A stretch of 64,000 nt of DNA from Candidatus Bathyarchaeia archaeon (GTDB lineage Archaea > Thermoproteota > Bathyarchaeia > 40CM-2-53-6). Location: assembly GCA_035656295.1 (NCBI GenBank), contig DASRSU010000008.1:8110-72109 (forward strand), written 5' to 3'. The notes beneath the pieces were generated by a model. The model ran no database searches and was not told where the DNA came from. It saw only the letters and a program-made list of their open reading frames with translations. Within the stretch, counting starts at the first letter, position 1. Every line of letters begins with the position of its first letter. Shown here in pieces: positions 1,126-37,571 of the stretch. A program made the position numbers and the translations under genes.

Positions 1126-2304
1126 TCAAAGCTTCAGATCCCCCGTCTCACCGAGGGCCCGGTAGGCGTTCAGCGTTACCCACTTACTAGGCTCTCCGAC
1201 CTTCTCAACTCTGACCGGCTCCTTCCGTCCCTTACCTGAAGGATAGAAGGAATCTCCTTCCGTCCACCAGTCGCCCTCAAGGTTCCATCTACCATCAGGC
1301 CTACGCTTCGACAATACCACTTGCACCGCGCTCCTAGTCCTCTCATCATCCGCAAAGCCAAGCTTCGTCAAAACCCTGAGTCCATGCAGTACATCGTAAA
1401 AGTAGTACATGGGAAAATGCAGCCGTGTAAAGAACGGATACGTCTCACGCCAGTGATGATTATCCGACTTGTACACATGATGCATCAACAAAAACTCCGT
1501 ACCATTCTCAATCGACCTCTTCATCCTCCGCGTCCACTTACTACGCGGAATCTCGCTGTACGCCCACAACGGTTCGATAGTGCTCATGAAGGAGCTGTGT
1601 TTCACCTTCTTCTCTGGAAAATCACAGTTCCAGCCACCATCCTCCAACTGCTGCACCGGCAACCAGTCAACCGCCGTCTTCACTCGCCGATCATTACCAT
1701 ATCCTAACCGGATCAATGTCCGAATCATGTTACCCGTCAAACACGGCTCATCCCACCGCTTCCCACGAGTCTCAAGCCTGCTCGGACAGACGAAAGAACC
1801 TGACTCATTCTGATGCAGATCCATGAATCTCTCAGCCTCAGCCTTGATCCTCTCATCAGCTGGCACAGCCAGCTCAGCCAACAATATCAATGGCCAGACC
1901 GCACTAGTCCATTTCGGCCGGTAACAGGTGTCCTTTGGCGGCCAGAACCCTGATTTGGTCTGCTTCGCCATGATATTCCGGACAATCCGGGACCCCGGAA
2001 TCTTCTTCTTGGCCGCTACCACATCAGTGTCCTTGGGTCCCCGGTGCAGCAGTTCGGTGAGAGCTAGGTATCGTACGGAGGGATTGCTAGGCTCTAGAAG
2101 CCAATCCAGTGTTTGCTTATCGAAAGACGGCACGAACACGGGAGAACAAGGAAGGCCCAAAATAGGTTTTGCTGGCGAACGTATTCTGCCTCGCCCAAGG
2201 GAAGATACTTTAGAAAACAGCCGGGCCACGGACTTGAACCAGTTGAACCCGAAGCAGGAGTCAGACCGACCGGTCAAGAGTCTGGTCAGCGGTGGGATTG
2301 CCAT
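1126..2304 (-). CDS. alpha/alpha-toroid prenyltransferase / terpene-cyclase-like repeat protein (hypothetical)
   Basis: Long minus ORF (listed as 1126..2499) with Trp/Tyr/Gly-rich repeats (EDGGWNCDF, DGRWNLEGDWW) typical of prenyltransferase/squalene-cyclase repeat proteins. Start placed at internal Met (residue 66 of listed ORF) to remove a ~160 nt antisense overlap with the SRPBCC gene; the 5' end is uncertain. Confidence 0.45.
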   Translation of the reverse strand: MAIPPLTRLLTGRSDSCFGFNWFKSVARLFSKVSSLGRGRIRSPAKPILGLPCSPVFVPSFDKQTLDWLLEPSNPSVRYLALTELLHRGPKDTDVVAAKKKIPGSRIVRNIMAKQTKSGFWPPKDTCYRPKWTSAVWPLILLAELAVPADERIKAEAERFMDLHQNESGSFVCPSRLETRGKRWDEPCLTGNMIRTLIRLGYGNDRRVKTAVDWLPVQQLEDGGWNCDFPEKKVKHSSFMSTIEPLWAYSEIPRSKWTRRMKRSIENGTEFLLMHHVYKSDNHHWRETYPFFTRLHFPMYYFYDVLHGLRVLTKLGFADDERTRSAVQVVLSKRRPDGRWNLEGDWWTEGDSFYPSGKGRKEPVRVEKVGEPSKWVTLNAYRALGETGDLKL

Positions 2305-2335
2305 AAAGGAGGTTTCTATCCATGTCGTCCCGTCA

Positions 2336-2803
2336 ATGGTCTTTGCCGCTTTGACAAAGCCCTCAAAGCTGAACACGTGGTTCACAACAGGGGCCAAGGT
2401 TGATCTTCGCGTTGGAGGCCGGTACTCTAACTTTGACAAGGATGCTGGTAGATTCCTCGAGATTGTTCCGAACAAACGACTCAGGTTCACATGGGACAAC
2501 CCTGATCATGCACCTGGTACCATCGTAGAGGTAGTTCTGACAAGAAACCGTGGGAGCACGATCGTCACACTACTACACTACGGGTTTAGCAAGAAGACAG
2601 ATTTCGAACATTACTCTTCACAAGCTTCTGGCTGGGACTGGGCACTATACAATCTAAAGGCCTATCTTGAAAAGAAGACCGTCGTCCAGTACGAAGAATG
2701 GCTCGAGAGGGAGAAATTGGTGTTTTCCAAGTCCGTTTTCGGATCCAACCCGCGGCTGCGAAAGGTCACCGCGAAGGACGAGGCAGAATCCCACGAGCTA
2801 TAG
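2336..2803 (+). CDS. SRPBCC / Aha1-domain (AHSA1-like) protein
   Basis: C-terminal 155 aa of ORF 1928..2803 (ALTKPSKLNTWF...VGGRY...RFTWDNPD...VTLLHYGF) matches the Aha1/SRPBCC fold pattern. Start at the in-frame ATG at 2336; the upstream 136 codons overlap the opposite-strand gene and look non-coding. AGGAGG at 2305-2310. Confidence 0.7.
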   Translation: MVFAALTKPSKLNTWFTTGAKVDLRVGGRYSNFDKDAGRFLEIVPNKRLRFTWDNPDHAPGTIVEVVLTRNRGSTIVTLLHYGFSKKTDFEHYSSQASGWDWALYNLKAYLEKKTVVQYEEWLEREKLVFSKSVFGSNPRLRKVTAKDEAESHEL

Positions 2804-3040
2804 CCACGTCATAGACACGTACGCATGGATAGAATATTTCCGAGCCTCGGGTGAGGGCGAGACGGCCCGAAAGTATATTGAGCAAGAAGTCTCATCAAGA
2901 ATAAGCCATAGCCAGCCGAAGTCCCGAAACTATCCAGAACTAGAGTGACCTACTCAGCACAGGCAGAAGGAATATATCGGCTTATGCTCCGAAACGCGTG
3001 GTGCAGAATGGTTGAAGCCGATTCGTTCGTGCTTGGCGAT

Positions 3041-3325
3041 TCACGCCAGTTCGGCGTCAGCCCGGTGTTCTTCTTCTTTCCAGTCCTTCAGCCTGCCACG
3101 AATCCTCTTCTGAAACCTTTCGAGCCTGAGGTCGGTGCTCAGTGAGAAGATTGGGTCGTTGGGATCTGCTTTCTCCGAGAGGAGGAGTAGTCGTGTGGCT
3201 ACTCTTAGTGCTTCTTTGAGGCTCAGCCCATGTTTCTCGGCGTAGCTCACTAACAGATTGTAGTCGGCCTTAGTAAGTTCCGTCTGGACAACTCTCACGG
3301 TATACGTTCCATGATCATGGACCAT
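3041..3325 (-). CDS. small hypothetical protein (possible ribbon-helix-helix-like)
   Basis: 94-aa ORF with a charged helical composition; no recognised family. Confidence 0.3.
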   Translation of the reverse strand: MVHDHGTYTVRVVQTELTKADYNLLVSYAEKHGLSLKEALRVATRLLLLSEKADPNDPIFSLSTDLRLERFQKRIRGRLKDWKEEEHRADAELA

Positions 3326-4110
3326 TTAAGAAATCGACTGGCCCCGATCAAAGAAGTGGACACGCTATCCTACCTCAAGCGAATTCGCTACGGAGGATCC
3401 GTTCAGCCCCGAATCGACGTTCTACGTAGGCTACACCGTCAACATTTGCTCACTGTACCCTTCGAGAATCTCGACATCCGCATGGGCCGACCAATCATCC
3501 TCGACCAACCCTTGTTCTTCCAGAACATTGTAACGAATTGTCGTGGCGGCTATTGCTACGAATTGAACGGATGCTTTGAGTGGCTGTTGAAGAGTCTTGG
3601 TTTTCAGGTGTCAATGCTCTCCGCGAGCGTGGCAACAAAGAACGACAGTTTCAGCCCAGACTTTGACCATATGCTACTGCTGGTCCATCTCAAGGAGCAT
3701 TGGCTGGCTGACGTCGGGTTCGGCGACCTGTTCACAGAACCAAAACAACTCAACAATTCCAACCCACAAGGGATAATGGGCGGCTGTACAAGATCAAGAA
3801 CGAAAATCGTAGAAGAGTCCTGTCCCGCTGGAACGAAGACACAAGTCAGTGGGAACCTCAGTACCGATTCAGCTTACAATCACGAAAGCTGACAGACTTC
3901 GCTACCAGGAATCGGTATCAGCAGACCTCGCCTATGTCTCATTTTACCCGAGGACGGTTGATAAGCAAACTTACACGTACAGGCAGGGTCACTCTCACTG
4001 ACAAGAGACTCATCGTGACAACTGGCAAGAAGCGCATCGAACGCTCTATTAAGAGCAGAAGAGAGTTCGATCAGCTATTGGCAAAACATTTCCAACTGAA
4101 AGTTGCGTGA
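3311..4110 (+). pseudogene. arylamine N-acetyltransferase (NAT family), disrupted by a -1 frameshift near 3770
   Basis: The N-terminal part (3311..~3780) carries the NAT motifs LTVPFENLDI and RGGYCYELNG (catalytic Cys). The C-terminal part continues in the -1 frame (DNGRLYKIKNE...LTDKRLIVTTGKKRIERSIKSRREFDQLLAKHFQLKVA, stop at 4108-4110) with no start of its own. Confidence 0.85.
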
Positions 4111-4133
4111 GAAACCACTGGTATGCTTAATTG

Positions 4134-4556
4134 TCACGACTCGAGTACGACATTCAATCTTCTAAGAGTCATTTTGTGTCTAAGAATAATGTCTCGCCCA
4201 AGGATGCTGTTGACGTTTTCGAGAAACGCTTTCCTTTCCGCTGGATCATTGCCTTGGAATAACAGAGCTCTCATTGGTTCAAAATCGTAATTCTTTCCAA
4301 CGAGGTTTAGTCTAACATGCTCCGGATACACGTACTGTTTGAGGACGTTTCCTGCTGTGAAGATTACTTCGTCGGTTTCCTGTAGCTTGTCTCTCTGGAT
4401 TCCCAGTTTCAAGAAATCTCCTTCTGAAACCTGAGTAAAAGTTGCACCAGTGTCTATTAGAAACCAGACTACTTCCGTGACATTTGCTGGAAAAATGGTC
4501 ACTCTTACTTGAATGCGGGGGCCCTTCGCAAGATCAACGACCCCGCTCTGTCGCAA
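4134..4556 (-). CDS. retropepsin-like (clan AA) aspartic protease
   Basis: 140 aa with the D-T/S-G-A active-site motif in hydrophobic context (FLIDTGATFTQV) and a length typical of single-domain retropepsin-like proteases. Confidence 0.7.
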   Translation of the reverse strand: MRQSGVVDLAKGPRIQVRVTIFPANVTEVVWFLIDTGATFTQVSEGDFLKLGIQRDKLQETDEVIFTAGNVLKQYVYPEHVRLNLVGKNYDFEPMRALLFQGNDPAERKAFLENVNSILGRDIILRHKMTLRRLNVVLES

Positions 4557-4563
4557 TCGTCCT

Positions 4564-4848
4564 TCAGATTATCATGTTGCGCGGTTTTGCGCCTATGAAT
4601 TCTGTCGCGAATCCGATTGTGCTTCCGTGTTTGTCTTTGAGTCTCTGGAGTAATGGCTCTAGGTCAGAGTCTGAGTCGACAATTTTCTTGTCTTTTACCG
4701 CTATCCATTTGTCTGGATACTCGCCGCGGAGCTTGTTGTAGTTCCTGACTATCCAGTCCATATCCTGGTTCGGAGCAGCAACCTTAGAGCCTTTAGTTAC
4801 TCTCATTTCTACCTGGAGGCCCATTTTGCTAGATTCCTCCCTTTGCAT
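4564..4848 (-). CDS. small hypothetical protein, co-directional and 7 nt upstream of the retropepsin-like protease
   Basis: 94-aa ORF (YPDKWIAVKDKKIV...), tightly packed with 4134..4556, suggesting a two-gene unit. Confidence 0.45.
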   Translation of the reverse strand: MQREESSKMGLQVEMRVTKGSKVAAPNQDMDWIVRNYNKLRGEYPDKWIAVKDKKIVDSDSDLEPLLQRLKDKHGSTIGFATEFIGAKPRNMII

Positions 4849-5064
4849 GTCTCAATAACTCCCGGAATTTGCTCCCACTGTAACCGTCCTAACACCTTGT
4901 CATATTAAGAATGGTAATACCCCAGTAATACGTGTATCCACAATCCAATGCTATCCAACCTTATCGTACAGGAAATTAGCGCCTTATCCAAGTCAAGGAT
5001 GACCGGTACAACGTACTACATCTGCTAGAGCTAGTGTCGAAGGTAGAATAGAACCCGGCATGAC

Positions 5065-5670
5065 CTATGCCCGCTTGTGCGGGGGTGATTGGAGGAATAT
5101 GGCCTTGAACCCTTCGAGCCAGGCCCGTTTAGCTTCTGGAACAGAAAGCCCCGAGACCATGAGCGTCTCGATCCCATTCCACAAACCAATGGCCGCATAT
5201 GTTATGGAGCGCAAGTCTAGCTGATCACTGACAAATCCTTTCTTCTGCAATTGGCCTAAGAAGCTTGTCAGGACATCCACATATTCGTCCTGGGTTTTCT
5301 TGAGCACGCGTCTAAGACTCGGGTTGCGTGACGCTTCCGAGAATATTTCAAAGCCGAGTCCCAAATTCCCCTCGTACCGCTTCACCATCTTATCGAAAAA
5401 TTCGCTGGCGCTCTCGATCGGATTCTTCCTCTCATCGAAGCTTGAGTACAGAATCTCTTTCAGAGCGAGTGGTTCCGTCCGGCTTACTTCTTCGAACAAT
5501 TCTTCCTTACTTGCAAAATACAGGTACAGCGCACCCTTGCTTACGCCAATCTTCTTTGCAACATCGTCCATCGTCGCCTGGCGGTATCCTTTCTCCGCGA
5601 ATACTTGGTTTGCAGCATCAAGGATCCGGCCCTTCGCTTCTTCCTTATACTCCGGCACGACTCGAGGCAT
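5065..5670 (-). CDS. TetR/AcrR-family transcriptional regulator
   Basis: N-terminal TetR HTH ([44 protein letters not shown]). The ORF opens at TTG 5679; the first ATG is at 5670. Divergent from the ABC operon. Confidence 0.9.
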
Positions 5671-5705
5671 TTCTATCAATCCGTACGCTCAACCTGGTAT
5701 TTAAA

Positions 5706-5758
5706 ATGACTGATGCGTCTGTGGAATGACCGATGCGCTTAAATACTGACCAATCAGT
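5706..5758. promoter_or_regulatory. candidate operator/promoter: three direct repeats aTGACyrAT(G/C) with TGAC at 5707, 5727, 5747 (exact 20-bp phasing) plus TTTAAAA / CTTAAATA AT-boxes
   Basis: Read directly in the 102-bp TetR-ABC intergenic region: atgactgatgcgt / atgaccgatgcgc / ctgaccaatcagt. The third unit is palindromic with the first (tgactgat / atcagtca). Confidence 0.35.
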
Positions 5759-5781
5759 CACTTTCACCAAGTGGTAAACAG

Positions 5782-6732
5782 ATGATCAATCCCTCTGCTG
5801 GATCCGACAAGATTGTCCAAGTAGAGAATCTCTCAAAGAAGTACGGAAATATTACAGCGGTCAACGGGATCTCATTCAACCTCACCAAAGGCGAAATCTT
5901 CGCTTTCCTAGGTCCTAACGGAGCCGGGAAAACCACCACCGTGGAAATCCTAGAAACTCTCCGAAACCCGACTGGCGGTCGAGCACATGTCCTCGGTTAC
6001 GACGTTAGCAAACGCACAGACCAAGCCGAAATCCGGAAACGCATTGGTGTCCTCCCACAGGATTTCAATGCAATCGACCGGCTAACAGTCCGAGAGAATA
6101 TCAATTATTTCGGAGCCATGTTCAAACACCAACTGGACGCGGACCAACTCATCGAACAGGTCGATCTAAAGGATAAACGAGACGAACAGTTCAAGAGTCT
6201 CTCTGGCGGGTTGAAACAACGAGTCGGCCTAGCAGTAGCCCTTGTAAACGATCCCACCCTCGTCTTCCTTGATGAGCCCACAACAGGCCTCGACCCACGC
6301 GCACGTCGGGATGTATGGGGCGTTATCGAACGGTTGAAGAAACAGGGAAAGACAGTCTTTCTAACAACTCACTACATGGACGAGGCCGAGTATCTGGCAG
6401 ACATCGTCTCGATCATTAACAATGGCCAAATCATTGCGTTGGGAACACCTGACCAGTTGATAGACTCCTACGGCGGTAAGAAGACGCTAATCATCCGCGA
6501 CGCAGGCCCACAGGGTCTCAAACAGCTACCACCGAACATTTCGAAAGCGGATCTACGCAACGCTGGTGACATCGCAATACCCCTCAACAATGGAGAACTC
6601 ACCAACATACTCCTCGAAATAGGGAAAACCCCGCTTCACGATAAGGAGATCGAGGTCAGACGTCCCACGCTGGACGATGTCTTTCTCAACCTTACCGGGC
6701 GTAGAGTGTCCGAGGAGGGAAACGGTGCATGA
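5782..6732 (+). CDS. ABC transporter ATP-binding protein
   Basis: Walker A GPNGAGKTT, ABC signature LSGGLKQRV, Walker B LVFLDEPTTGLD, H-loop TTHYM. Confidence 0.92.
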   Translation: MINPSAGSDKIVQVENLSKKYGNITAVNGISFNLTKGEIFAFLGPNGAGKTTTVEILETLRNPTGGRAHVLGYDVSKRTDQAEIRKRIGVLPQDFNAIDRLTVRENINYFGAMFKHQLDADQLIEQVDLKDKRDEQFKSLSGGLKQRVGLAVALVNDPTLVFLDEPTTGLDPRARRDVWGVIERLKKQGKTVFLTTHYMDEAEYLADIVSIINNGQIIALGTPDQLIDSYGGKKTLIIRDAGPQGLKQLPPNISKADLRNAGDIAIPLNNGELTNILLEIGKTPLHDKEIEVRRPTLDDVFLNLTGRRVSEEGNGA

Positions 6733-7844
6733 CCCGGGTCACAACCATCATAATTGGCCACTTCAAAGGCTGGTATCGCAGCAGAAGCAACATCTTCTGG
6801 ACAATCGCCTTCCCGCTTCTGCTCATAGTCCTGTTCGGCGCAATCTTCGGAAGCGGCAGCACAAAGTTCGACCTATACCTCCAGAACCAAGACCTCAACG
6901 GGAACGTTCCCACCACGTACTCACAAGGCTATGTACAGGTCCTCAACCATACTGGAGCCTTTAACCTCCGAATGATACCTGCAGAAAACACGAACCCGCT
7001 CGGCTATGTGAAAGATGACGCACAAGTCCACAACAGAGGCCAACGATTACTAGTAATACCCCTTGGCTTCCAGACGGAACTCAATACGAAACACAATGCA
7101 AGCATTCAGCTGTACATGGACAATAGTGATCAAGCTTCTGCAAGCCTCGCTGGCATAGTCACAGCAGCCACAACCTCGTACGCATCCCAATTCGCCACCA
7201 ACCCGGCCAGCCTGACAGTGAGCCAGGTGCCAATTGTTACCAGAAACGTCCGGTACATTGATTTCTTCATACCCGGAGTCATCGGCATGACACTGCTCAC
7301 CACAGGCGTCTTCGGCGCCGTAAACACGAACGGCAGATACAGGGAACTGAAGATCATCAAGAAACTGGCCACTACCCCCTTGAGCAAGATCGAATGGATC
7401 CTGGGAATGGTAGGCTACCAGATGATTCTCGCCACGATCTCGCTCGCGGTCATACTCGTATTTGGCTGGGCCATCTTCGGCGTAAACGCCACCATCACCA
7501 TCTACACCGCGGGACTCGTATTCGCCGCCGCATTACTATTCCCAGGTATAGGAATGGTCCTAGCCAACTTCGTCAGAGAAGCCGAATCAGCCGATGCAGC
7601 CGCCAATGCGATAACATTCCCGATGATGTTTCTCGCGGGCACGTTCTGGCCCCGCGAGACCCTACCTGATATTCTGAAGGTCCTCGCCAACTTCATGCCA
7701 TTGACCTACATCAACGATGGATTACGGGATGCAATGATCTATCTCGCACCAGCCCAGGCATTCAACAACATGATCATAGCACTCGGCCTCGCAGCATTCT
7801 TCATCGTCCTTGGCAGTTTGCTCATGAACTGGAAAGAAGAATAG
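6729..7844 (+). CDS. ABC-2 family transporter permease
   Basis: ATGA start/stop overlap with the ATPase gene; multi-TM 371-aa protein with ABC-2 permease topology (N-terminal TM, large loop, five C-terminal TMs). Confidence 0.8.
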   Translation: MTRVTTIIIGHFKGWYRSRSNIFWTIAFPLLLIVLFGAIFGSGSTKFDLYLQNQDLNGNVPTTYSQGYVQVLNHTGAFNLRMIPAENTNPLGYVKDDAQVHNRGQRLLVIPLGFQTELNTKHNASIQLYMDNSDQASASLAGIVTAATTSYASQFATNPASLTVSQVPIVTRNVRYIDFFIPGVIGMTLLTTGVFGAVNTNGRYRELKIIKKLATTPLSKIEWILGMVGYQMILATISLAVILVFGWAIFGVNATITIYTAGLVFAAALLFPGIGMVLANFVREAESADAAANAITFPMMFLAGTFWPRETLPDILKVLANFMPLTYINDGLRDAMIYLAPAQAFNNMIIALGLAAFFIVLGSLLMNWKEE

Positions 7845-7848
7845 CGAG

Positions 7849-8267
7849 ATGAGCATCCAGGCAATCGCAAACGAGCCCCGAAAACTCACGGTAGTTGTTG
7901 CCGCGAACCTTGCTGTACTTGGCGTGCACGCTACGGCCCACTCGATACTTGGCGTAGTCTTATCAGATTTTCAGTCACTCTTCGTGTTATTGGCAATGAT
8001 TATTGGGCCTATCGTTGCGGTCCCACTCCTGTTTACTCATCTTCGCGTGGGACTGTGGCTGTTGCTACTCTCAATGCTACATCCTTCGTCTTCGGCTTCG
8101 TCTACCATCTCATACTCCCTGGCGTAGACAACATCTTCACTCTCCCAGCGGGTGATTGGAAAATCGTCTTTCAATTCACGACTGTGCTCCTAGGAGTTTT
8201 GGAGGCAGCAGGAGCTCTGCTTCCTGCGTTGGGACTGTTGAAATTCAGGACAGTGAAAATTTCCTAG
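7849..8267 (+). CDS. small hydrophobic membrane protein, possibly split by a frameshift (ORFs 7849..8127 and 8055..8267)
   Basis: Two overlapping hydrophobic ORFs in adjacent frames; the second has no independent upstream context. Confidence 0.3.
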
Positions 8268-8561
8268 TCTCGGCTCCGACGATTACGTCTTGCGATCCTA
8301 CGAGCCTTCCGCTTGGCCTGTTTCTTTCTAACAACTAGAATTAGAGATAGGACCGCTGCAAGTCCTGTGATGATAATTACAGTGTTACTCAAAATTGTAT
8401 TCGCCCCAATCTTCGAACCGACGACCACATTGCCAGGCTACTAGAACAGTCTGTTACCGGAGCTCTACTGCTCGTTGAGTGTGAACTACGCTGCCACAAG
8501 CCGTCGATAGATTTAACCACACATCCCAAAATCCAAGACTATAGGACCAAGTGAAGACCAC

Positions 8562-8972
8562 TTGAAACCAACTCGAATCCTTGCCAACCTAGTCGGCATG
8601 ATGCTCTTCGTCCAAGTGATCCTTGGAGGAGGCGCCGTATTGTTGGGCTGGGACATAAACTATCACACCGCCTGGGGAGTAGTCACTTTCATCACATTGA
8701 TCATTGCCACCGTACTGGCATTCCGGAATTACGGCCAACAGTCGAACATGTTCAAGGTTGGAATCGCCGCCATAGCCGACTATGTTCTCCAGATAGCCTT
8801 AGGCTTCGTTGCCCTGAACGTGACCGTGAACACCGGATTGACTGTCGTCATACATCTCACTAACGCGTTCGTGCCGGGAGTCTTTACAACCTACTTCATC
8901 AGTTTCGCGGACAGCGCTGAGAAAACTGGTGCCATTCTCCATACTGCGACAACTAACCCATTTCAGTCATAG
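8562..8972 (+). CDS. hypothetical integral membrane protein (4 TM)
   Basis: 136-aa ORF with four hydrophobic segments. Confidence 0.45.
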   Translation: MKPTRILANLVGMMLFVQVILGGGAVLLGWDINYHTAWGVVTFITLIIATVLAFRNYGQQSNMFKVGIAAIADYVLQIALGFVALNVTVNTGLTVVIHLTNAFVPGVFTTYFISFADSAEKTGAILHTATTNPFQS

Positions 8973-9051
8973 CTCTAAGATTCTGCAACCACAATCCATT
9001 TTTCACGTGGAAGCATTTCTATTCTAGCTCAAAGCCTGAGACTGACGACAC

Positions 9052-9423
9052 TTGACCCTGATTCTGCACATTGCAACCCGACAAGAGTGGGAGAATGCAC
9101 AGTCTCTCGGAATCTACAGGACGCGATCGCTCGACACGCAGGGTTTCATCTACTGTTCCTATCCAGATCAGCTGGTCAAGATCGCAAACCAGCTATTCCA
9201 TGGACACAAAGATCTCGTATTGCTATTAATCGAATCGAACCGTGTCCATTCTGACGTTCGAGAAGATGAAGGAACAGACACTCACCCATACATCTACGGT
9301 CCACTAAACCTCGATTCCGTGTCAAGAGTACTTGATTTCAGACCCAACAAGTACGGGGATTTTGAAATGCCAGCGAATCTGGCTCAGCCCCCAAAAAAGG
9401 AATCCGCTAAACCTACTGTATGA
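9052..9423 (+). CDS. DUF952-family protein
   Basis: N-terminal pattern MTLILHIATRQEWENAQ...GFIYCSYPDQLVKIANQLFHG..DLVLLLIE matches DUF952 proteins. Confidence 0.6.
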   Translation: MTLILHIATRQEWENAQSLGIYRTRSLDTQGFIYCSYPDQLVKIANQLFHGHKDLVLLLIESNRVHSDVREDEGTDTHPYIYGPLNLDSVSRVLDFRPNKYGDFEMPANLAQPPKKESAKPTV

Positions 9424-9477
9424 TCGGCGTTGAGTCAGCCTCCACAAGCCAATGATCACTGCTAGCCCGAGAACCCT

Positions 9478-9891
9478 CTATTGTTTCTTCTTGGCGTCTG
9501 CTCTCTCGGTAAGCTTTCTTGAGAAACGTACTTTGACATCCTTTCCTTTCACAGCGTGGGAAAGTACTCCTGGCTTTGAGACTGCGTCTTCGACTTCGGG
9601 AGAGATGTTGATTCTAGTCTTGAAGACGGGCATTGGTTCAAGGGTGACGATATCTGGGGCACCGTCTACCTCAATTATGTGAGGGATCCTGATCGCATTC
9701 TCGACGGACATGAGCACGTCCTTTTCTAATGGTAGCTTCGAAATTTCTTTCATAGTATCATCCCCTAAGTAGTAGCTTGCAGTTCCTGCAATCTTCGCGA
9801 TCTGTCGCACTTTCTTAGCGCTGCTCGTCCCCGCGATTTTTGCCAGCTTCCTAGTTGACGAGGGCCCGTTCACAATCAGTGCCTTGACCAT
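9478..9891 (-). CDS. hypothetical protein with tandem helix-hairpin-helix-like repeats (LAKIAGTSSAKKV / IAKIAGTAS)
   Basis: 137-aa basic protein with a duplicated KIAGT motif reminiscent of HhH DNA-binding motifs; no confident family assignment. Confidence 0.35.
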   Translation of the reverse strand: MVKALIVNGPSSTRKLAKIAGTSSAKKVRQIAKIAGTASYYLGDDTMKEISKLPLEKDVLMSVENAIRIPHIIEVDGAPDIVTLEPMPVFKTRINISPEVEDAVSKPGVLSHAVKGKDVKVRFSRKLTERADAKKKQ

Positions 9892-10285
9892 TTTGGCAGT
9901 GATACGAGAATCATCGACTTTCTTCGGCAGCTTTCATGCCTCTGAATATATGACGTGAATACGGACATATATACGCATTGTTAACAAATATTCACTTTCG
10001 GGTCGATGCCCAACTCTTAACTCAGATTTACCCAGACCAACTTCGGGAGCTTGACTGACCAGACAACAGTCGAAGAATGGCATGCCTGCAGGCTACTAAT
10101 CAGAATCGGCACTTACATCCTCACACCCGGGATCGCGTTTGGACTGGTCGGCCTCTACCTATCAGTACAATACAAACCCGTACTCTACCTTCTCGCCGGT
10201 CTAATCATCACTGGCATCGTATTGCTCGCAGGCGGATACGGTTGCAAGCTGGCATGGAAACGAAAATACACGAGCAAGGCCTAGA

Positions 10286-10666
10286 TTGGCAAGACCATGG
10301 ATACCCGTACTCCCCCCAGGAACAAGCGACCGCGCAATAGCCGCCTTCGACAAGATCAGCTCAGACGATGATTTCAGGATCGTTCTGGTAAGCATTTACC
10401 AGAAAAATGTCGCATCACTTCAGTACGTGAAGACGGACTTTCTTCTGAAGATCATGGTCCAGGATCTCCTCGAAAAATTCGACAATCTCGATCGGATCGA
10501 AGTATCGAAAGAAGAATTAGCAGCACTCAGACAGGCAAAACTTGCAGTAGACTCTGCCGCGACTAAATGGAAAGAACAGAGAGCCTACGCTTGCACGCTA
10601 CTCGTTATTCTCACACTGAGAAAGATGGTCCAGGAGAACCTGGTAAAATTAGAGATCCAAGAGTAG
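10286..10666 (+). CDS. hypothetical protein
   Basis: 126-aa ORF; upstream 10051..10284 is a 77-aa 2-TM ORF in the same orientation. Confidence 0.35.
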   Translation: MARPWIPVLPPGTSDRAIAAFDKISSDDDFRIVLVSIYQKNVASLQYVKTDFLLKIMVQDLLEKFDNLDRIEVSKEELAALRQAKLAVDSAATKWKEQRAYACTLLVILTLRKMVQENLVKLEIQE

Positions 10667-10675
10667 CTGTTAGAG

Positions 10676-13167
10676 CTAGCTTGTCTGTCTCTTGTGGGTC
10701 ACCTTCAATGAGATTCGCTTGACAAAGACAATTCCTTTTCCAGTGACGATTTCAAATTCTGCTGGGACAGGCGATGTCTTTCGGCCCGCAAGTCTCTTCA
10801 CACTGATCAGCCTCGCAGTCGATCCTCCCTTCTGAACTGCGTTTAGTTCTATTACTCCGTCCACTAGGTTGTCGACGTTCGATCTTACTTCTTCAGGGAT
10901 CGAACCTCTCGATCCGGCGAGTACCAAGATCCCGTTATTGTTCTTGACCTTGGCGCTGAGGGCTCTGAGAAAGTTGATGGTCGTCTGGGGTTGGACTCCA
11001 TTGAAGATCGGTGCGATAGAGTCCATGACGATCATGATAGGTCCCCCCTTCGCGTTTTCGATCATGCTGGTTACTTGGATCCCGGTCTCCGTGAAGTCAA
11101 CCGGGTCCCTTACCTGTGGATTCTCCACCCCTGCAAGAGCAGAATAACAGTCTAGAATCCTGAAGGTTCCATTCTTCAGATACTCATCCACATCCCACCC
11201 GAACGACTTCATGATCCGTTGAATCTCCGCAGGAAAGGCATCATACGTGATGAGCCCTGCATGCTTTCTGTTGAGAGTTGTCGGTACATCAATTCGAGGC
11301 TAAGCGTTGTAGTTCCAGAGCCGGTGTCACCAAGAATCAATAACGTGGTAGAGGGCGAAAACTCTCCGCCTGTAAGTTTGAAGAGTTCGTCGAACGACCC
11401 CTGTCCCGTGTTGAACCTTCTGACTAGCAGTAGACCTGCCCCTCCCGATCCAGCTATTAGAGCTGCTACGAAAAACCAGAACGTAAGAGACTGTGGAATC
11501 GCCGCTGCGGGCGATGTATTGACAATGACTGACTGCGTCTGCTGACCCGCATTGCCATAAGCATCCATGACTTTGACTGTGGTCACCCACAGTCCAGAAG
11601 GATCCGCTGACCGGACAACGTAGCTTCCCGCCCATCTCGACTGACCCTGAACGTACGAGAGCGACAATGGGGTTCCAGTCGGACTTCCATTAGAGGAAAA
11701 TGTTACAGTCACTGTCCCATTGGTGAAAATCGTACCGTTGGGGTTTGTGATGGTTGCATAGACGGGTATCACTTGCCCGGTCGTATATGTCTGGTTGGGA
11801 ATTGTGAGAATTATGTTGAAAGTTGCGAGTTGTACATTGAAGCCCCGGACAACACTCGTCAACGGGCCCCCGTTCCCGTAGCCGTCGTCGAAACTGTTCG
11901 GCTCAATTGTGGCTACCCATGCTCCCGTTGGAGCATTGATCGGTGTCTTGGACACCGCTTGGTATAGACCCGTACTAGAATTGTAGTTTGCGGTTATGAT
12001 GAACGATGTTGTTCCGTCTGGTGCAGTGATTCGGATGCTGGTCGACCCGGCCTGGACGGGTAGACCATTCAGGTAGAATACGCTGAAAGAATAGTATTGA
12101 GACTGTGTCCGTTGAATTACACCTTGTGCGACCGTGATCTGTGCGATCGTCACGTTCGTCGGATACACTGTAAACTGACGCACAATACCAACTACGGGAC
12201 CAGTGTTTCCATAGCTATCATTGAACATGCCCGGGTCGATGGCCGCCAACCAGTTGCCTTTCTGGCTACTAGCAGGTATCATGTATGTGGCTCGATATGC
12301 TGCGTAGGTCGAGTTGTAGACTGCAGTGGCAAAGACAGAGGTTACACCATCAGATTCCGTTAGCCTAATCTTCGCCGATCCCGTCTGCACAACTGGTCCA
12401 GTAGAGTAACTAACGGTGAAGGATACCGACTGTGTCTGAGTTCTCTGAATAGTTACCTGGCCGAGCAGCAGTGGCGAGATTGTGACATTGGCGGGATTCA
12501 TAGTGAACGCCTGCCTGTCAGGAACAATCTTGCTAGTCTGGCTTCCTGTAAGGGAGACCGTCCAGCCACCAATTGGTGCGTTTACGGGTATCTGCCATGA
12601 TGTTGATAATTGGCCGGTGGAGTCAGCGGTGATCGTGGTAGGATAGCCATTTGCGGAGGTTGAGCCCTGGAAAATATTGATCGTCGTCATTTCCAGGTTA
12701 CGGTAACCTGTGGCCTTGATGGAGACGGTGTTAGTCCGCTGGTAAGTCAGCCTGTCAGTTAGTCCAACTTGGAATTGTCCACTGGCTACGTTTGGGACAC
12801 TGGTTGGCAGGGTCTCGTTGATTATGACATTGTAGTTTCCTATGAGGACGATGCTCGTTGCAAAATCTCTCGGATATTGAAGACTGATAAGGAATGAGGC
12901 AGCTGTAGCAACAGTCTGGTTCGAATGATTCCTCACCACCCCCGACGGGTCCGTTACCCCCCATGTGAACTGGTAAGCGGTCCCGATAGTTGCGCGAGAA
13001 ACATTCATGACCAATACGTCTGCTGCCGTCCCAGTCTCCTGCTGTCTCGCGGGTACCGGCGTGAACGTGAAGACTTCTCCGGCCGCATGAACGTGAGGGA
13101 TAGCTGGGGTAAGGAGTACGAGAAAAGATAGGACCGGAATTCCAATACGGAATAGTTTGGAAATCAA
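10676..13167 (-). pseudogene. surface receptor-like protein with a cytoplasmic KaiC/RecA-like domain, split across two frames near 11213-11300
   Basis: From the N-terminus: signal peptide (LVLLTPAIPHVHAAG), ~520 aa with tandem ~110-aa repeats and many N-x-S/T sequons, one TM helix (FWFFVAALIAGSGGAGLLLV), then a KaiC-like start GSFDELFKLTGGEFSPSTTLLILGDTGSGTTTLSLEL with a degenerate P-loop (Lys->Thr). This frame then stops (11209). The domain continues in the other frame without its own upstream start (GLITYDAFPAEIQRIMKSFGWDVDEY...IMIVMDSIAP...VLAGSR...). Confidence 0.65.
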
Positions 13168-13467
13168 GGACTATGCAGCCTTATCTTAACACCCAGACCA
13201 GTGCGTTACGACCCGCATCGGTCCTTGATTGGACGACGCCTATGGTAAGAGTCCCGTAACTGAAAATGCTAGGACACAGTACCTTGGTCTCGTTTATTTG
13301 CCAGTTTGAGCTGGACTCGTCAGAACTGCGAGTATCTCGTCGAACCGTTGTCTACTGATCTTTCTGGTTGGTTCTATTTGAAGCTCTGACCGACAGCCGT
13401 TCTTCCACAAATCTTATCGCGAAGACCTGTTGCTCTAGTTTGCGAGGCAAGAAAAGGAGGGCATGTG

Positions 13468-13638
13468 ATGGCGTTTGTTTTCTGGTTCAGCTGGGCCCTG
13501 TTCATCGTGTTTGAGAGGATCACGCTCGGCATGCCTTGGCCAGCGAAGGATTTCCTGATTTCGCAGTTTGCAGATGAGTTTGAGGCGCAGCGGCAAGTTC
13601 TCAAAGTCAGGAGTATTTCGAAACATTGGGGCTCTTAG
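13468..13638 (+). CDS. small hydrophobic ORF (56 aa) with a strong Shine-Dalgarno
   Basis: AAAAGGAGGG 6 nt upstream of ATG 13468; MAFVFWFSWALFIVFERITLGMPWPAKDF... Shorter than the ORF-track cutoff. Confidence 0.25.
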   Translation: MAFVFWFSWALFIVFERITLGMPWPAKDFLISQFADEFEAQRQVLKVRSISKHWGS

Positions 13639-13768
13639 CAGTCTAGTAGTTCTCGTGTCGCTCGCTTGCACCGTGGGACTGGACCCTTCTCGGCGCGCAT
13701 ATCAGATTCTTCCTCTGGCTTGAACCGATAGCGATGTTCTGGCTTGTTCGGATGACGCGCACTGTGTA

Positions 13769-14671
13769 TTAAGTCACAGGCGCGACCTGTCCCACGATGG
13801 ATTTTGATCGCAACCCGGCCACCTTCGCCTCAAGTCCGGGAGCATCTAGGCGCTTGCACATGGTCGAGAAAGACTCGTCTGGTCCCTTCCAACTTAGCTC
13901 ATCTGGTGATTTGATCCTCGGCTCGTCCTTCCTAAGTGTCGCTAGGTCTCGGAACAGTAATGCGAGCTTCATGTTCTCCCGCAGCGTCTTCGCCAGCGCG
14001 TCGTATCGACGCGGTTTTATCTTCCACTCTGTTCCATCTGCGGGAATAGCTTCCAGGTGAGTATAGGACGAGAGTACAGCGGAGGTCGATTTTTCTCCCC
14101 AGCCCTCCAAGCCTGGATATCCATCCGAGGTATCTCCGACCAATGCGAGATAATCAGGAATCGACGAAGGCGCGACACCATACTTTTCGATAACGCCAAT
14201 CTCGTCCCGGTAGCGCTGGGCCCGTCGGTCCAGTTGTAAGACACGATCGCTAACGACACACTGGGCCAGGTCCTTGTCCGGCGTGCAGATCAAAACATGA
14301 TGAACTTCACTGAACCTACCCAATGAGGCGGCCGCGCCCGCCAGTGCATCGTCAGCCTCTAATTCCACCATTGGCCAGACCACAACACCCATCGCTGTAA
14401 GAGCCTCCTCCAGCAATGGAAATTGCGCCAACAACTGTGGAGGTACGCCCTCCTCCGTCTTGTATCCGGGCCAGAGATCATTGCGGAAAGAACGGATCAC
14501 GTGATCTGTAGCAACACCGACGTGCGTCACACTATTCTCAAGCATCGACGCCACACTATCGAGCACGCCAACAACAGCCCCAACCTCTTCTCCCACAGAA
14601 TTCACGTGCGAGGGCACTGCGTAGAAGTGTCGGAATAATTCGTATGTGCCATCGACGAGGTAGACGTCCAA
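13769..14671 (-). CDS. bacterial-type 5'-3' exonuclease / flap endonuclease (Pol I N-terminal domain homologue, ExoIX/Xni-like)
   Basis: HVGVATDH, acidic VELEADDALAG, and an H3TH region LALVGDTSDGYPGLEGWGEKSTSAVL. About 300 aa. Confidence 0.8.
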   Translation of the reverse strand: MDVYLVDGTYELFRHFYAVPSHVNSVGEEVGAVVGVLDSVASMLENSVTHVGVATDHVIRSFRNDLWPGYKTEEGVPPQLLAQFPLLEEALTAMGVVVWPMVELEADDALAGAAASLGRFSEVHHVLICTPDKDLAQCVVSDRVLQLDRRAQRYRDEIGVIEKYGVAPSSIPDYLALVGDTSDGYPGLEGWGEKSTSAVLSSYTHLEAIPADGTEWKIKPRRYDALAKTLRENMKLALLFRDLATLRKDEPRIKSPDELSWKGPDESFSTMCKRLDAPGLEAKVAGLRSKSIVGQVAPVT

Positions 14672-15287: not shown

Positions 15288-16928
15288 ATGTCTGAAATGC
15301 CGATCTATATTTTGAGAGAAGGCACCAACCGCACCCGCGGAAAGGATGCCCAGCGAACCAACATCATGGCCGCCAAGATCATCGCCGAAACAGTCCGCTC
15401 AACCCTCGGTCCCCGCGGCATGGACAAGATGCTGGTCGCCAGCATCGGAGACGTCGTCATAACAAACGACGGCGCCACGATCGTGAAGGAGATGGATGTT
15501 CAACATCCCGCAGCCAAGATGCTGGTCGAAGTTGCCAAGACACAGGATAGCGAGGTTGGAGATGGGACCACGACCGCTGTCGTACTAGCGGGCGAATTAC
15601 TAGCAGGCGCGGAAAAACTTCTCGACAAGGACGTTCATCCCAACGTTATCATCGACGGTTACCGGGACGCAGCGGAGAAGGCCTTAGAGGTTTTAGATGA
15701 TATTGCTGTCAGCATCAAACCTGACGACGTAGAACAATTGAAACAGGTCGCGTTGACCAGTCTAAACACGAAAGGCATCTTCGGATCACAGGAACACTTT
15801 GCGGATCTAGCCGTCGAAGCCATTCGCGATGTAATGGAAAGGACCGGTGACAAGATCAATGTCGACCTCGACCTTGTCAAGGTGATCAAGAAGCATGGAA
15901 AGAGCCTGGACGATACCGAGCTCGTGAACGGGATCGTCATCGACAAGGAACCATCTCATTCCGCGATGCCGAAGGTTGTGAAAGACGCGGCCATCGCATT
16001 GCTGAACGCGAAGCTCGAGATCGAGAAGGGCGAGTTCACTAGCGAGATCAGGATTAACCGGCCTGAAGAGATGCTGCAATACTTGGATGAGGAGACTAAT
16101 CTTCTCAAGAAGATGGTTGACCAAGTCGAAGAATCCGGCGCCAACGTATTACTCACGCAGTCCGGGATTGATGATGAAGCTCTGGCAATGCTTGCGAAGC
16201 GAGGAATATTCGCCATCAAGAACGTCAGCAGCAGCGACCTAGAAAAGCTAGCCAAAGCTACTGGCGCCAAAATAGTTGGCACCGTCAAAGATCTCTCGGC
16301 CGCATCGCTTGGCCAAGCCAAGCTCGTCGAGGAGGTTAAGATTGGCGACGACAAGCTGACCTATGTCCGGGAAGCCAAGAATCCGAAAGCGGTTACGATA
16401 ATGATACGCGGCGGATCCGAACACGTAGTAGACGAGGCAGAGAGGGCATTACACGACGCATTATCCGTTGTCAGAGATGCGGTTGAAGATGGAAAAGTTG
16501 TCGCCGGTGGAGGCGCCCCCGAAGCAGAACTTGCTAAGCGATTGAAAGATTATGGGAGGAATGCTGGAGGCAGAAGTCGATTAGCTATCACGGCCTTCGC
16601 AGAAGCATTAGAGGAAATACCTGTCGCACTGGCCCAGAACGCGGGGTTAGATCCTATCGATATCATGGTCGAGCTCCGGGCGAAACACAATACTCCGACC
16701 AACAAATGGTATGGCGTAGACGTATACACGGGCAACATAGTCGACATGTGGAAACTGAACGTCATCGAACCATTACGAGTCAAGAAACAGGTCGTCAAGT
16801 CGGCCTCTGAAGTCGTAAACATGCTCATACGCGTCGACGACGTGATCGCTTCGAAGGGTGGAGGTCCTAGTTCTAGTGCGCCCAAGGGGCCGCCTGGCGG
16901 CATGCCACCCGGCATGATGGGAATGTAG
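15288..16928 (+). CDS. ths: thermosome subunit (group II chaperonin)
   Basis: 546 aa; [29 protein letters not shown], and a C-terminal [10 protein letters not shown] tail. Confidence 0.96.
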
Positions 16929-20376: not shown

Positions 20377-21003
20377 TCAGCGGTTACGGCGACGCTTGGC
20401 CTTCCTCGACTTCATAGAGTTATTGTCTCTCTGGAAAAACAGCCCGAACGCTAGTACAGCAAGAATCCCCGCGAATACGAGTGCGGCATTGTAGCTGAGC
20501 AGTATCTCTCCGATGGCAAAGTTTGCTCGGACCCAGGACTGCATGCTCAGGCTGGACGAATACTCCCCGACCAGTCCAGCATAGATGAGGACTAATAATC
20601 CGGCCTCGACCAGTCCGACCAGCATCGTCCGAGAAACCTTTCTCGTCGGAATATCCTCTGGAGTGAAGATTGCGTGGACACCTTTCATCGATCCAGTCCT
20701 CCCCCAGCTTCTAGCTTCGATCGTGTTCAAGCCAATCGAGTCATCTGACAAGTCATCTCCAGGCAATGAGACATCTGAGTTCTCGCCCCGGATCCAGGAT
20801 CGTACGACAGGTGTCCGTGACTTTCGTTTGAGCAGGGCCCAGCCTGTGCCTGCGAAGACGAGGGCGATTCCTATCGCGGTAAGCCAGAACGGAAGTGGAC
20901 TACTCGCGAATGCCACAGGATCCAGCCTAGCTGAGCCATTGAAAAGTCCATGCTTCGATCGTACACCCGGACGGACAAGAAGAGTAGCTTGCGCATATGT
21001 CAT
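20377..21003 (-). CDS. hypothetical membrane protein
   Basis: 208 aa with a TM near the N-terminus and two at the C-terminus, basic tail. Confidence 0.4.
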   Translation of the reverse strand: MTYAQATLLVRPGVRSKHGLFNGSARLDPVAFASSPLPFWLTAIGIALVFAGTGWALLKRKSRTPVVRSWIRGENSDVSLPGDDLSDDSIGLNTIEARSWGRTGSMKGVHAIFTPEDIPTRKVSRTMLVGLVEAGLLVLIYAGLVGEYSSSLSMQSWVRANFAIGEILLSYNAALVFAGILAVLAFGLFFQRDNNSMKSRKAKRRRNR

Positions 21004-23043: not shown

Positions 23044-23907
23044 TTATGGTTTCGCTTGAACTGCGCTTCTCTTCAGGACGCTCCAAAGAGTAGCCAGGTT
23101 ATGCTCCCAAGCATCTTTGCCGCCCGTTTCGATGCTTACAACGATCTTCAGAAATTCTTCTACTTCAAGCGGGACAACCCTGTAGTCATTGTCCCTGCCC
23201 ACCGTGACGAGGATCGTCTGTGTTTTTGCCTCAATCTTTGGGGCTATGAAAACGCCTGATACAGATTTGTCTCGATAAGTCTTCCTGGCATCTTCAATAT
23301 GATCAGGAACAGACGCAGCCTCCTGATTCCATTGTGCTCTTCCTCTTAGAAGGGTAGTCTCCACAACATACACGTTGTTGCCCTGAAAAGCCATTATGTC
23401 GGGCAGTTTCTTTCCAGTCTGTTCCGAAATCTTTTGGGCAGGAGTTGGAAGACCCCACTCTCCGGTCTTGCCGTTCCAAACAACATCATCAAACACGGTT
23501 CCTTTGAATACACGTAAGACCCGAAAGACTAATTCTTCCAGCCTTCCTCCAGCAACCCACCGTAGAGTTTTGGGGTCACTTTTCTCGGTCCCATTTTTCC
23601 ATTCCAACCTAGTCTGAAGGTCTGAATCTGCTTTCTTGGTCACAAGTTCCCGAATCCAGAGTGACAATAATTCGACTGTATCTACCTGGGCGGGCAGGCC
23701 CTCTTCTAGGGATATGGAGAACGTTCTATGCTTCGAGTCAGGTCTTATCATCGCTTTGGATATGGCCTGCCCGTCAGCTGGGCGGATTACTTCAATCTCG
23801 TATTCGCTATTCTCATACAGGCTGAAAATGGCGGAACCATCCTCGTTAGCAAATTGAACCGATTCAGGCTGTTGACCGGACTTCTTTGACTTTGACGACA
23901 AATCCAC
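23044..23907 (-). CDS. restriction endonuclease, C-terminal part (putative catalytic domain), GTG-initiated ORF continuing 23864..24751 in another frame
   Basis: 287 aa. The ORF opens right after an in-frame TAA (~23933). The combined length with the upstream ORF (~580 aa) matches AlwI-family enzymes, so a single gene split by a frameshift is likely. Confidence 0.4.
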   Translation of the reverse strand: MDLSSKSKKSGQQPESVQFANEDGSAIFSLYENSEYEIEVIRPADGQAISKAMIRPDSKHRTFSISLEEGLPAQVDTVELLSLWIRELVTKKADSDLQTRLEWKNGTEKSDPKTLRWVAGGRLEELVFRVLRVFKGTVFDDVVWNGKTGEWGLPTPAQKISEQTGKKLPDIMAFQGNNVYVVETTLLRGRAQWNQEAASVPDHIEDARKTYRDKSVSGVFIAPKIEAKTQTILVTVGRDNDYRVVPLEVEEFLKIVVSIETGGKDAWEHNLATLWSVLKRSAVQAKP

Positions 23908-26145: not shown

Positions 26146-26297
26146 AAAAAGGGACGGTTTACCGAGTCCGCGAGGACTACCATGATTACGCCGTGGAAGT
26201 GAAAACGGTTCTCGTCGCTGGAGAAACTCTCATGGAGATAGGATTCTATCGAAAGTACAGACTCATCCAAACCCGACATCGTATACAAACCAGACAT

Positions 26298-28508: not shown

Positions 28509-28760
28509 TTTCGATCAACGTTTATTTTGATGCGAGAATCACGACAGCATAATGACAGACAGGAAAACATGGGAAGGAAAGGCGACTCGACGGAACGAGG
28601 CGAATGACCACTACTTTGAATGGGGGGGTGCTGGAGCGTGGTGAAGAAGACGTAGATTTGCTGCAGATGTTTAGAGAACTGTTCGGAGATCGTTCATGGC
28701 GTGGAGATCCTTGGGCGGGTAGGAAAGTGCGTGTGACTCTTGAGGAGATCCCCTAATGAA

Positions 28761-29591: not shown

Positions 29592-29593
29592 GT

Positions 29594-30235: not shown

Positions 30236-30607
30236 TCTTTACACCGGGCCCATTCGCGTAATCTGGGGCAAGATCGTTCGTTCTGATGAGCGGCCATCTT
30301 CTCAAACTCAGCTTTCACGTCATCACTCGCGGGATCCCAGATGTTCCTCTGACCGCAATATGGACAATCCGGAATTATTGTCAGACTCAATTCATGCTCC
30401 CTCTTTGTCTCATGATATCCTGTTGGGCCGCCTGTTCTCTGGCCGCAGTAGCTTGCAACAAAAGGAGTAAGCCGGCAACCACTTTCTGTGGCGCATTGTC
30501 AACCTGTTCCGGTGTCCAGCCATATTCTCTGCCCATGATGTGGTAGAGCAGGACCTGGTCGACGTCAAAATCCGGCTCGTCCGGAATAGGCGCCGAGCCA
30601 CGGAATC

Positions 30608-31521: not shown

Positions 31522-31525
31522 ACTA

Positions 31526-33121: not shown

Positions 33122-33125
33122 TTTG

Positions 33126-34191: not shown

Positions 34192-34200
34192 TAGTAAGAA

Positions 34201-34692: not shown

Positions 34693-34698
34693 GGACTC

Positions 34699-37569: not shown

Positions 37570-37571
37570 GA

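Follow-up and report, generated by a model that had tools for sequence, protein, structure and literature searches.

A lysine-less KaiC-like domain behind a macroglobulin-type ectodomain in a receptor-like membrane protein of Bathyarchaeia

What becomes of a KaiC-type ATPase domain that sits behind a large extracellular domain and a single membrane helix, and that has lost the lysine of its P-loop? The question is raised by a gene at 10676..13167 on the (-) strand of a 64,000-nucleotide stretch (the window, meaning the whole DNA analysed here) of contig DASRSU010000008.1, from a Candidatus Bathyarchaeia archaeon (assembly GCA_035656295.1). An earlier note, made from the sequence alone, described the product as a receptor-like protein with a cytoplasmic KaiC-like module split between two frames. 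Once the frame is restored, the product is a type I membrane protein, with a signal peptide, a stalk of five macroglobulin-like (MG) domains outside, one transmembrane (TM) helix and a complete KaiC/RecA-like domain inside. More probably than not, it acts as a non-catalytic transmembrane adaptor or receptor that feeds KaiC-type signalling.

One gene in two reading frames

In public data, the locus is annotated as two open reading frames (ORFs) of 652 and 178 aa: ORF1 (11209..13167, (-), TTG start) and ORF2 (10676..11212, (-)), the frame of which differs from that of ORF1. ORF2 alone matches positions 67-228 of the Pfam KaiC profile PF06745 and the C-terminus of ORF1 matches positions 3-46; joined (242 aa), they match positions 8-228 of 231 (E=7.8e-26, 91.3 bits against a cut-off of 26.6 bits). 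The two frames are therefore halves of one domain. As judged from sequence, 10676..13167 (-) is one gene in two pieces, not two genes, and encodes an 831-aa protein when one missing base is restored. This is what the earlier note had proposed for the downstream half, and the deletion falls within the 11213-11300 junction that it had singled out. Orthologues in which the two frames are separate genes were looked for, and the orthologues proved to be single ORFs: at least 12 cluster representatives of 784-867 aa share the architecture and cover 94-100% of the repaired protein at 53-63% identity. Seven orthologous loci in GTDB species representatives all come from soil or sediment metagenome-assembled genomes of the Bathyarchaeota type.

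A codon-level comparison with six orthologous loci places the missing base in a Gly codon, between 11268 and 11267. At this frameshift site (11264..11268, (-)), G_A-AAG stands in place of GGN-AAR (Gly-Lys): the window codons read ACA-G_A-AAG and those of the six loci GGG, GGA or GGC followed by AAR, with Gly-Gly (GGA-GGA) in locus L005. Past the site, ORF1 continues for 18 out-of-frame codons to a TGA at 11209..11211, which overlaps the ATG of ORF2 (ATGA, 11209..11212). Programmed frameshifting was rejected, because neither an X-XXY-YYZ heptamer nor a long A-run is present at the site and every orthologue is in frame. An apparent second frameshifted orthologue (UBA185, L003) was discounted; its break falls on N or masked bases (X in the translation).

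Identity to the intact orthologue P0002 is 65% after the frameshift and 61% before it, the downstream region is free of stop codons, and all clade-invariant residues are present there. Because conservation is as high behind the break as in front of it, the lesion must be either artefactual or very recent. Run SRR12347814, assembled independently in Logan, matches the window at 100% identity over 6512 bp (7701..14212) and reproduces the 652 + 178 split, which argues against an assembler artefact. The balance tilts somewhat towards a real mutation and away from a read-level error, and the window gene may have become a pseudogene only recently. An error in sequencing or in the consensus, with the gene intact and functional in the organism, is quite possible all the same, if less probable. 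The lack of decay behind the break favours it, as do the short run in which the base is missing (GGAAAG read as GAAAG) and the frame breaks seen in further metagenomic family members. However, this explanation has to contend with the identical Logan sequence and with a run of only two G's, without a long homopolymer; the similarly split AlwI-like endonuclease gene of the window fits real pseudogenes and error equally well. It is highly improbable that the locus makes two functional products, namely a membrane protein with a 50-residue P-loop stub and a 178-aa soluble fragment translated by stop-start coupling, the two possibly reassembling as a split domain. The ATGA overlap and the calling of both ORFs as genes in public data would suit such an arrangement, but the overlap is given automatically by Met-Lys codons, the ATG being the conserved Met of R.M..FGWD. 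Moreover, every orthologue is a single ORF, ORF1 runs through 18 junk codons before its stop, and ORF2, which lacks strand β1, the P-loop and helix α1 of the RecA core, is not a folding unit.

Secreted, membrane and cytoplasmic parts

The repaired full-length protein was modelled with AlphaFold2 from a 61-sequence alignment (pLDDT 89.8), and the model has the architecture given in the earlier note. The N-terminus, read from sequence, consists of the TTG start and a Sec-type signal peptide (13084..13167, (-), residues 1-28). Its sequence, MISKLFRIGIPVLSFLVLLTPAIPHVHA, cut before AG, combines a basic n-region, a hydrophobic core and a cleavage-like site between VHA and AG; it is conserved in orthologues and contains a low-confidence helix at residues 9-18 of the model. 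The ectodomain (11503..13083, (-), residues 29-555) is modelled with pLDDT >90 as five MG-like β-sandwich domains, all on the (-) strand: D1 (12760..13080, residues ~30-136), D2 (12493..12753, residues ~139-225), D3 (12160..12489, residues ~227-336), D4 (11827..12156, residues ~338-447) and D5 (11518..11823, residues ~449-550). D3 and D4 are a tandem duplicate (47% identity over 108 aa, E=6e-32), only one of which is carried by an orthologue set of 709-762 aa. The single TM helix (11413..11484, (-), residues 562-585, TFWFFVAALIAGSGGAGLLLVRRF) is followed by RR; since these arginines lie on its C-terminal side, the KaiC-like domain is in the cytoplasm.

The ectodomain has a Pfam MG2 match (E=3.8e-10), and Foldseek aligns it with the MG1-MG6 array of complement C3/C5, alpha-2-macroglobulin and bacterial ECAM (E ~1e-20, ~600 columns). 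The five modules superpose on MG1-MG6, at a sequence identity of 9-13% and with a different inter-domain arrangement (TM-score 0.14). In contrast to these proteins, the window protein has no thioester domain, bait region, CUB domain or receptor-binding domain. What it shares with the alpha-2-macroglobulin/complement family is thus the MG-domain array and not the thioester domain with CGEQ or the bait region. There is no cysteine anywhere in residues 29-555, and hence no thioester; an alpha-2-macroglobulin-like protease trap was ruled out on this ground and because there is no bait region and, in the model, no helical thioester domain. The composition is rich in Thr, Ser, Val and Gly, with Lys and Glu at ~1% each. 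Fourteen N-x-S/T sequons are found in the ectodomain, against 7.6 +/- 2.4 expected from composition-preserving shuffles (14 is reached in 0.7% of them), and one in the cytoplasmic part; seven positions are kept in at least 60% of orthologues. This roughly 2-fold enrichment, together with the seven conserved positions, suggests a surface protein with predicted N-glycosylation. The signal peptide, the single TM helix and the sequon-rich β-repeat surface domain of the earlier note are therefore all borne out. The last is refined to an MG-domain array, which also occurs in many short-tailed paralogues of ~520 aa, so that its role at the surface may be purely structural.

The cytoplasmic domain begins in the frame of ORF1 (11269..11412, (-), residues 586-633) and continues in the -1 frame, through the stop codon, over 10676..11266 (-); in the full model, it is an α/β domain at residues 587-820. 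Its membership of the PF06745 'ATPase' superfamily lies above the curated threshold, and a profile search of the PDB and Foldseek agree. The clade profile matches the whole KaiC CI domain (per-domain E ~1e-23 to 1e-18; 7.3e-23 for the designed KaiC 8zn5 and 7.1e-18 for the natural KaiC 7s65), as well as the archaeal single-domain proteins PH0284 and SSO2452 and ArlH/FlaH. Modelled separately (pLDDT 89.7, pTM 0.88), the domain comes closest to the hexameric archaeal KaiC-like protein PH0284 (TM-score 0.81-0.84, rmsd 2.4 Å over 229 columns), with KaiC CI next. The RecA-fold match after the TM helix, on which the earlier note depended, is thus strong. The domain is a member of the KaiC superfamily, yet neither a clock KaiC nor an ArlH, since its scores are far below the cut-offs of the NCBIfam KaiC equivalogs (NF006799, 57.2 bits against 408; TIGR02655, 40.4 against 546) and of ArlH (NF052589, 48.6 bits against 215). 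In addition, it is a single domain, no Kai genes are among the neighbours, and no arl genes are nearby.

Alignment to KaiC CI by hidden Markov model (HMM) gives the replacements K52 to T, E77 to D and E78 to A, with the Walker B residues D145/S146 kept as Asp-Ser. The Walker A motif, canonically GxxxxGK[ST], is degenerate (GDTGSGTT, 11308..11331, (-)) and has Thr (ACT, 11311..11313) at the lysine position, as the earlier note had read. In place of the catalytic Glu pair, Asp-Ala occurs in T-Y-D-A-F-P, YDAF standing where KaiC has FEET. Walker B (IMIVMDS; Asp-Ser at 11018..11023, (-)) aligns with D145-S146, and its Asp-Ser is invariant in the clade; a clade-specific motif, ILDCYSALAG..RDPVDFTE, lies at 11072..11158 (-). 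Of the non-catalytic signalling module that the earlier note proposed, the loss of the lysine and of the KaiC Glu-Glu pair is established; that the domain is non-catalytic and that it signals are points that we infer.

Compared with KaiC CI, the window protein has the common RecA-like KaiC fold over the whole domain (Foldseek TM-score ~0.75-0.8), the Walker B Asp-Ser and the order of motifs. Unlike KaiC, it is single-domain and not a CI-CII tandem, is anchored in the membrane behind a large ectodomain, has Thr for the Walker A Lys and Asp/Ala for E77/E78, and has no KaiA or KaiB nearby. Proteins of the PH0284/SSO2452 type, the best structural matches, are likewise single-domain, and PH0284 crystallised with six chains (2dr3); they differ in being soluble, with an intact GxxGxGK[ST], and in lacking the signal peptide, the ectodomain and the TM helix. 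In function, the nearest analogue of a KaiC-like module that does not hydrolyse ATP is ArlH/FlaH of the archaellum motor, also a single KaiC-like domain, which binds ATP without hydrolysing it and regulates its partner ATPase ArlI (PMC8978795). Unlike the window protein, ArlH is soluble, keeps the Walker A Lys and is encoded in the arl operon.

The lost lysine and the proposed role

All 25 clade representatives have a Walker A motif of the form G..G.G[TMIV][ST], with T, M, I or V at the lysine position. In a simple neighbour-joining tree, without support values, these 25 and two further eroded representatives (EDxxTGANT) form one clade with no Lys-bearing member, which puts a single loss of the lysine in the ancestor of an MG-ectodomain lineage. 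In the sister clade (P0110/P0112), nothing of the loop is left (ARKDE[ED]ATA), and the next relatives (P0094, P0096, P0097, P0099 and P0111) keep the lysine in GDPGSGK[ST]. Relatives with an intact P-loop, which the earlier note had wished to see sought, thus exist as sister clades rather than within the lysine-less clade. This clade shows no variation at the glycines of the P-loop, at Walker B or at ~40 further positions, and its 240-aa KaiC-like domain has a mean column identity of 68%. Read from these alignments, the loss of the Walker A lysine is ancient and has been selected around, and the lysine-less clade descends from and nests within a large Bathyarchaeia family of ectodomain-TM-KaiC-like proteins.

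This family was searched exhaustively with a profile HMM of the cytoplasmic domain against 1.84 billion representatives, of which 4646 matched at E<=1e-3 and 100 at E<=1e-30; the counts that follow refer to the best 150 of these 4646 cluster representatives (50%-identity clusters). A TM-like hydrophobic segment directly precedes the KaiC-like domain in 85 of the 150. The domain ends at most 25 residues from the C-terminus in 80 and is preceded by more than 150 residues in 72; among the TM-linked members with the full domain aligned, GxxGxGK[ST] is kept in 69 and not in 14. The window protein has the same layout, with a secreted N-terminus and a TM helix directly before an extreme C-terminal domain. 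The architecture that the earlier note called unusual is hence only partly so: loss of the lysine marks a clade, but membrane-anchored KaiC-like domains are common and mostly have intact P-loops. In the examples inspected, the ectodomains vary (MG, PKD, CARDB and Ig-like arrays; up to 1689 aa) and the TM-KaiC module is constant. All family members with a named organism are Bathyarchaeia.

In three of five Lys-bearing loci, a soluble KaiC-like ATPase of 251-258 aa with an intact P-loop is convergent to the membrane protein gene and abuts or overlaps its 3' end (L011 5962..6738 (-), L015 12292..13047 (-), L019 9531..10298 (-)). The soluble partners of L011 and L015 are 45% identical, although their membrane partners come from different sub-clades. 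The Lys-bearing TM-KaiC gene and the soluble ATPase thus look like a conserved two-gene module. Directly downstream of an eroded-loop relative (L009 9131..10837, (+)), a soluble 568-aa protein combines a KaiC-like domain with intact GALGSGKTT and a long disordered N-terminus rich in Pro, Ser and Gln; only the homologous disordered N-terminus is present on the short contig L010 (3127..3489, (+)). Genes for an archaeosortase (Exosortase_EpsH) and for glycosyltransferase/PTPS-related membrane proteins lie near two Lys-bearing TM-KaiC genes (L015 8253..9848 and 15782..16807; L017 1..505 and 1700..5156), which hints, at two loci, at a link of TM-KaiC proteins to cell-surface biogenesis.

Domains of the KaiC type assemble into hexameric rings whose nucleotide sites lie where subunits meet. 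The window protein would be a pseudo-enzyme receptor or adaptor: when its ectodomain binds or clusters at the cell surface, the KaiC-like domain in the cytoplasm might change its conformation or its state of oligomerisation. This domain would oligomerise as other KaiC-type domains do, a hexamer being suggested by its likeness to PH0284 (2dr3) and KaiC. Presumably unable to hydrolyse ATP itself, it could join soluble KaiC-family ATPases or autokinases as a non-catalytic subunit, offer them a docking platform or be their substrate, and surface information might thereby be passed into the KaiC-based regulatory network proposed for archaea. The proposal draws on the family pattern of a variable outside and a constant inside, and on the precedents of ArlH and of inactivated KaiC ('iKaiC') domains, which are reported in archaeal signalling proteins (PMC5847659). 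These are likewise KaiC-like domains with a degraded ATPase site fused to signalling modules but, unlike in the window protein, the fusions reported there are to REC, HalOD1, PAS and similar cytoplasmic domains (PMC5847659).

Several observations count against this proposal. The window copy itself is disrupted and may be without function in this organism. Lysine-less loci (window, L001-L007, L012-L014) have no conserved neighbour and no adjacent soluble KaiC gene. The Asp-for-Glu replacement (YD.FP) is common to Lys-bearing relatives and so is not by itself a mark of inactivation; the plain tree behind the single loss belongs here too. Formation of a hexamer, binding of nucleotide without the lysine and hetero-oligomerisation are steps that we infer. 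Finally, the MG array also occurs in ~60 paralogue clusters of ~500-550 aa that have nothing but a short charged tail in the cytoplasm, so that this ectodomain can work without the KaiC module and may be mainly structural.

This last point is the main argument for the chief rival explanation, here thought rather unlikely, according to which the MG array is an envelope, S-layer-like or adhesion glycoprotein and the KaiC-like ring does no more than cluster or anchor six chains. Its ectodomain composition, with abundant Thr, Ser, Val and Gly, no Cys and conserved sequons, is typical of archaeal envelope glycoproteins, loss of the catalytic lysine is consistent with a purely architectural role, and the archaeosortase and glycosyltransferase genes near L015 and L017 fit as well. 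However, a 240-aa domain as conserved as this one, with an invariant glycine-rich loop and Walker B, exceeds the needs of an anchor. Across the family, one ectodomain can be exchanged for another, much as in sensor families. In the sister clades, the ATP site is complete and the protein is paired with a soluble KaiC ATPase, which points to a nucleotide-dependent function in the ancestor. Could the domain instead still be an active ATPase or autokinase, with a non-canonical P-loop? In WNK kinases, the function of the catalytic lysine is supplied from elsewhere, and here it might be supplied in this way or in trans by a neighbouring subunit. What is retained would suit this: the glycines of the P-loop, the Ser/Thr that follows the missing Lys, the Asp of Walker B and several invariant Arg/Lys residues (RTL, GR, AKVK). 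Yet no clade-specific new Lys or Arg was found, and a relocated catalytic lysine was ruled out accordingly; the GK after helix α1 and the other basic residues also occur in Lys-bearing relatives. Further erosion of the loop in two sub-lineages (EDxxTGANT) and in the sister clade (ARKDE[ED]ATA) would be unexpected for an active site, and residual activity of this kind is judged improbable. An analogy, with no homology implied, is offered by the bacterial Wzc-type BY-kinases or polysaccharide co-polymerases, in which an extracytoplasmic domain is likewise combined with a cytoplasmic ring-forming P-loop autokinase and which control surface-polymer biogenesis; their P-loop is of the MinD/SIMIBI lineage instead of the RecA/KaiC one, and each protein spans the membrane with two TM helices. 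A component of anti-phage defence was dismissed as a candidate, PADLOC giving only a 14.5-bit non-match.

Archaea have few classical two-component systems or receptor kinases, and KaiC-like ATPases are said to have been proposed as their main signalling hubs. A 2017 paper by Makarova, Galperin and Koonin is reportedly the source both for these hubs and for iKaiC domains. We know of no route by which extracellular information reaches KaiC hubs. The searchable full-text literature yielded no description of a KaiC-like domain that follows an extracellular array and a TM helix, although the figures or tables of Makarova et al. (2017) may mention one. Public databases give such proteins only general names ('KaiC/GvpD/RAD55 family RecA-like ATPase', 'hypothetical protein'). 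Inactivated KaiC-like domains are known, and the present case suggests that what is new is their place in a single-pass receptor-like architecture. Tentatively, the window gene may be a pseudo-enzyme member of an undescribed class of archaeal single-pass receptors ('receptor KaiC-like proteins'), with variable Ig-like, PKD or MG arrays, one TM helix and a KaiC-type ATPase/autokinase domain with a dedicated soluble KaiC-like ATPase. If so, the family would be the missing transmembrane input layer of the KaiC-based archaeal signalling network, and the lysine-less clade would parallel the pseudokinase receptors that stand beside receptor kinases in eukaryotes. With a putatively glycosylated ectodomain coupled by one helix to a KaiC-like domain, it is a concrete candidate for extracellular input; it holds catalytically intact and naturally inactivated members, with recurrent soluble KaiC partners. 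In it, P-loop decay can also be followed through natural stages of a single scaffold (intact, Lys lost, loop eroded), which is useful for studying the roles of RecA-fold pseudo-ATPases. Its hosts are uncultured soil Bathyarchaeia, the cell-surface biology of which is essentially unknown, and it is the family, more than the damaged window copy, that merits interest.

Neighbouring genes and the remainder of the window

The gene stands alone in the window, with a 600-bp upstream spacer and a convergent downstream gene; DUF952, 5'-3' exonuclease, thermosome and ABC transporter genes are its neighbours. In the 64-kb window, the family HMMs matched only the gene itself, with no paralogue or soluble KaiC partner. 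A conserved operon was ruled out by comparing all ORFs of the window and 15 loci (L001-L015) against one another, since the lysine-less genes proved to have no neighbour in common; an ABC ATPase that turns up in four loci was dismissed as SufC or an unrelated transporter. The nearest soluble KaiC gene to a lysine-less gene is 4.8 kb away (L001). A small conserved module, in which a ~98-aa protein accompanies a KaiC ATPase of 283 aa, occurs in L001 (9404..11401) and L008 (2428..3572) with 64% identity between the two; it is ~5 kb from the receptor-like gene in the former, where a MASE3-like membrane protein follows, and ~5 kb from an MG-only paralogue in the latter. In the single locus L012, a TPR-containing adenylate/guanylate cyclase (12570..14489, (+)) lies 200 bp downstream of the lysine-less gene on the same strand, and a second cyclase-domain protein (5512..6900, (-)) lies upstream. 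An antisense ORF within the KaiC-domain coding region (window 10869..11147, (+)) has counterparts in 10 loci (11 in all); most likely, it is no gene of its own and reflects the conservation of the sense frame.

The MG-only paralogues (L008 7977..9551, L005 14576..15934, L013 14402..15904, and P0020-P0075) have charged, coiled-coil-like tails; in the one that was inspected, from L008, a signal peptide, an MG array and a TM helix are followed by a short charged tail. These proteins may be a major envelope glycoprotein family of soil Bathyarchaeia.

Elsewhere in the window, genes for the thermosome and the PolD large subunit serve as archaeal markers, and no tRNA or Rfam matches were found. A restriction-modification module (23044..24751 (-) and 24781..26145 (-)) has an N6/N4 DNA methylase beside an AlwI-like endonuclease; the endonuclease is broken up over two ORFs, which overlap, differ in frame and match profile positions 13-186 and 347-441, and it is a second frameshifted gene of the window. 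A phosphoesterase ORF (PF04185, 19358..20359, (-)) misses the first ~85 profile positions, and the ORF upstream of it (20377..21003, (-)) is in another frame and has no Pfam match; the phosphoesterase may be a third disrupted gene or have a divergent N-terminus. The region ~26000..48000 (-) may be an integrated tailed virus (a Bathyarchaeia provirus): this candidate carries a Phage_tube_2 tail tube gene (32243..33121), a D12 Dam-type methylase gene (33126..33965) and a run of long same-strand ORFs without Pfam match (e.g., 26298..28508, 34699..36210 and 39379..41580).

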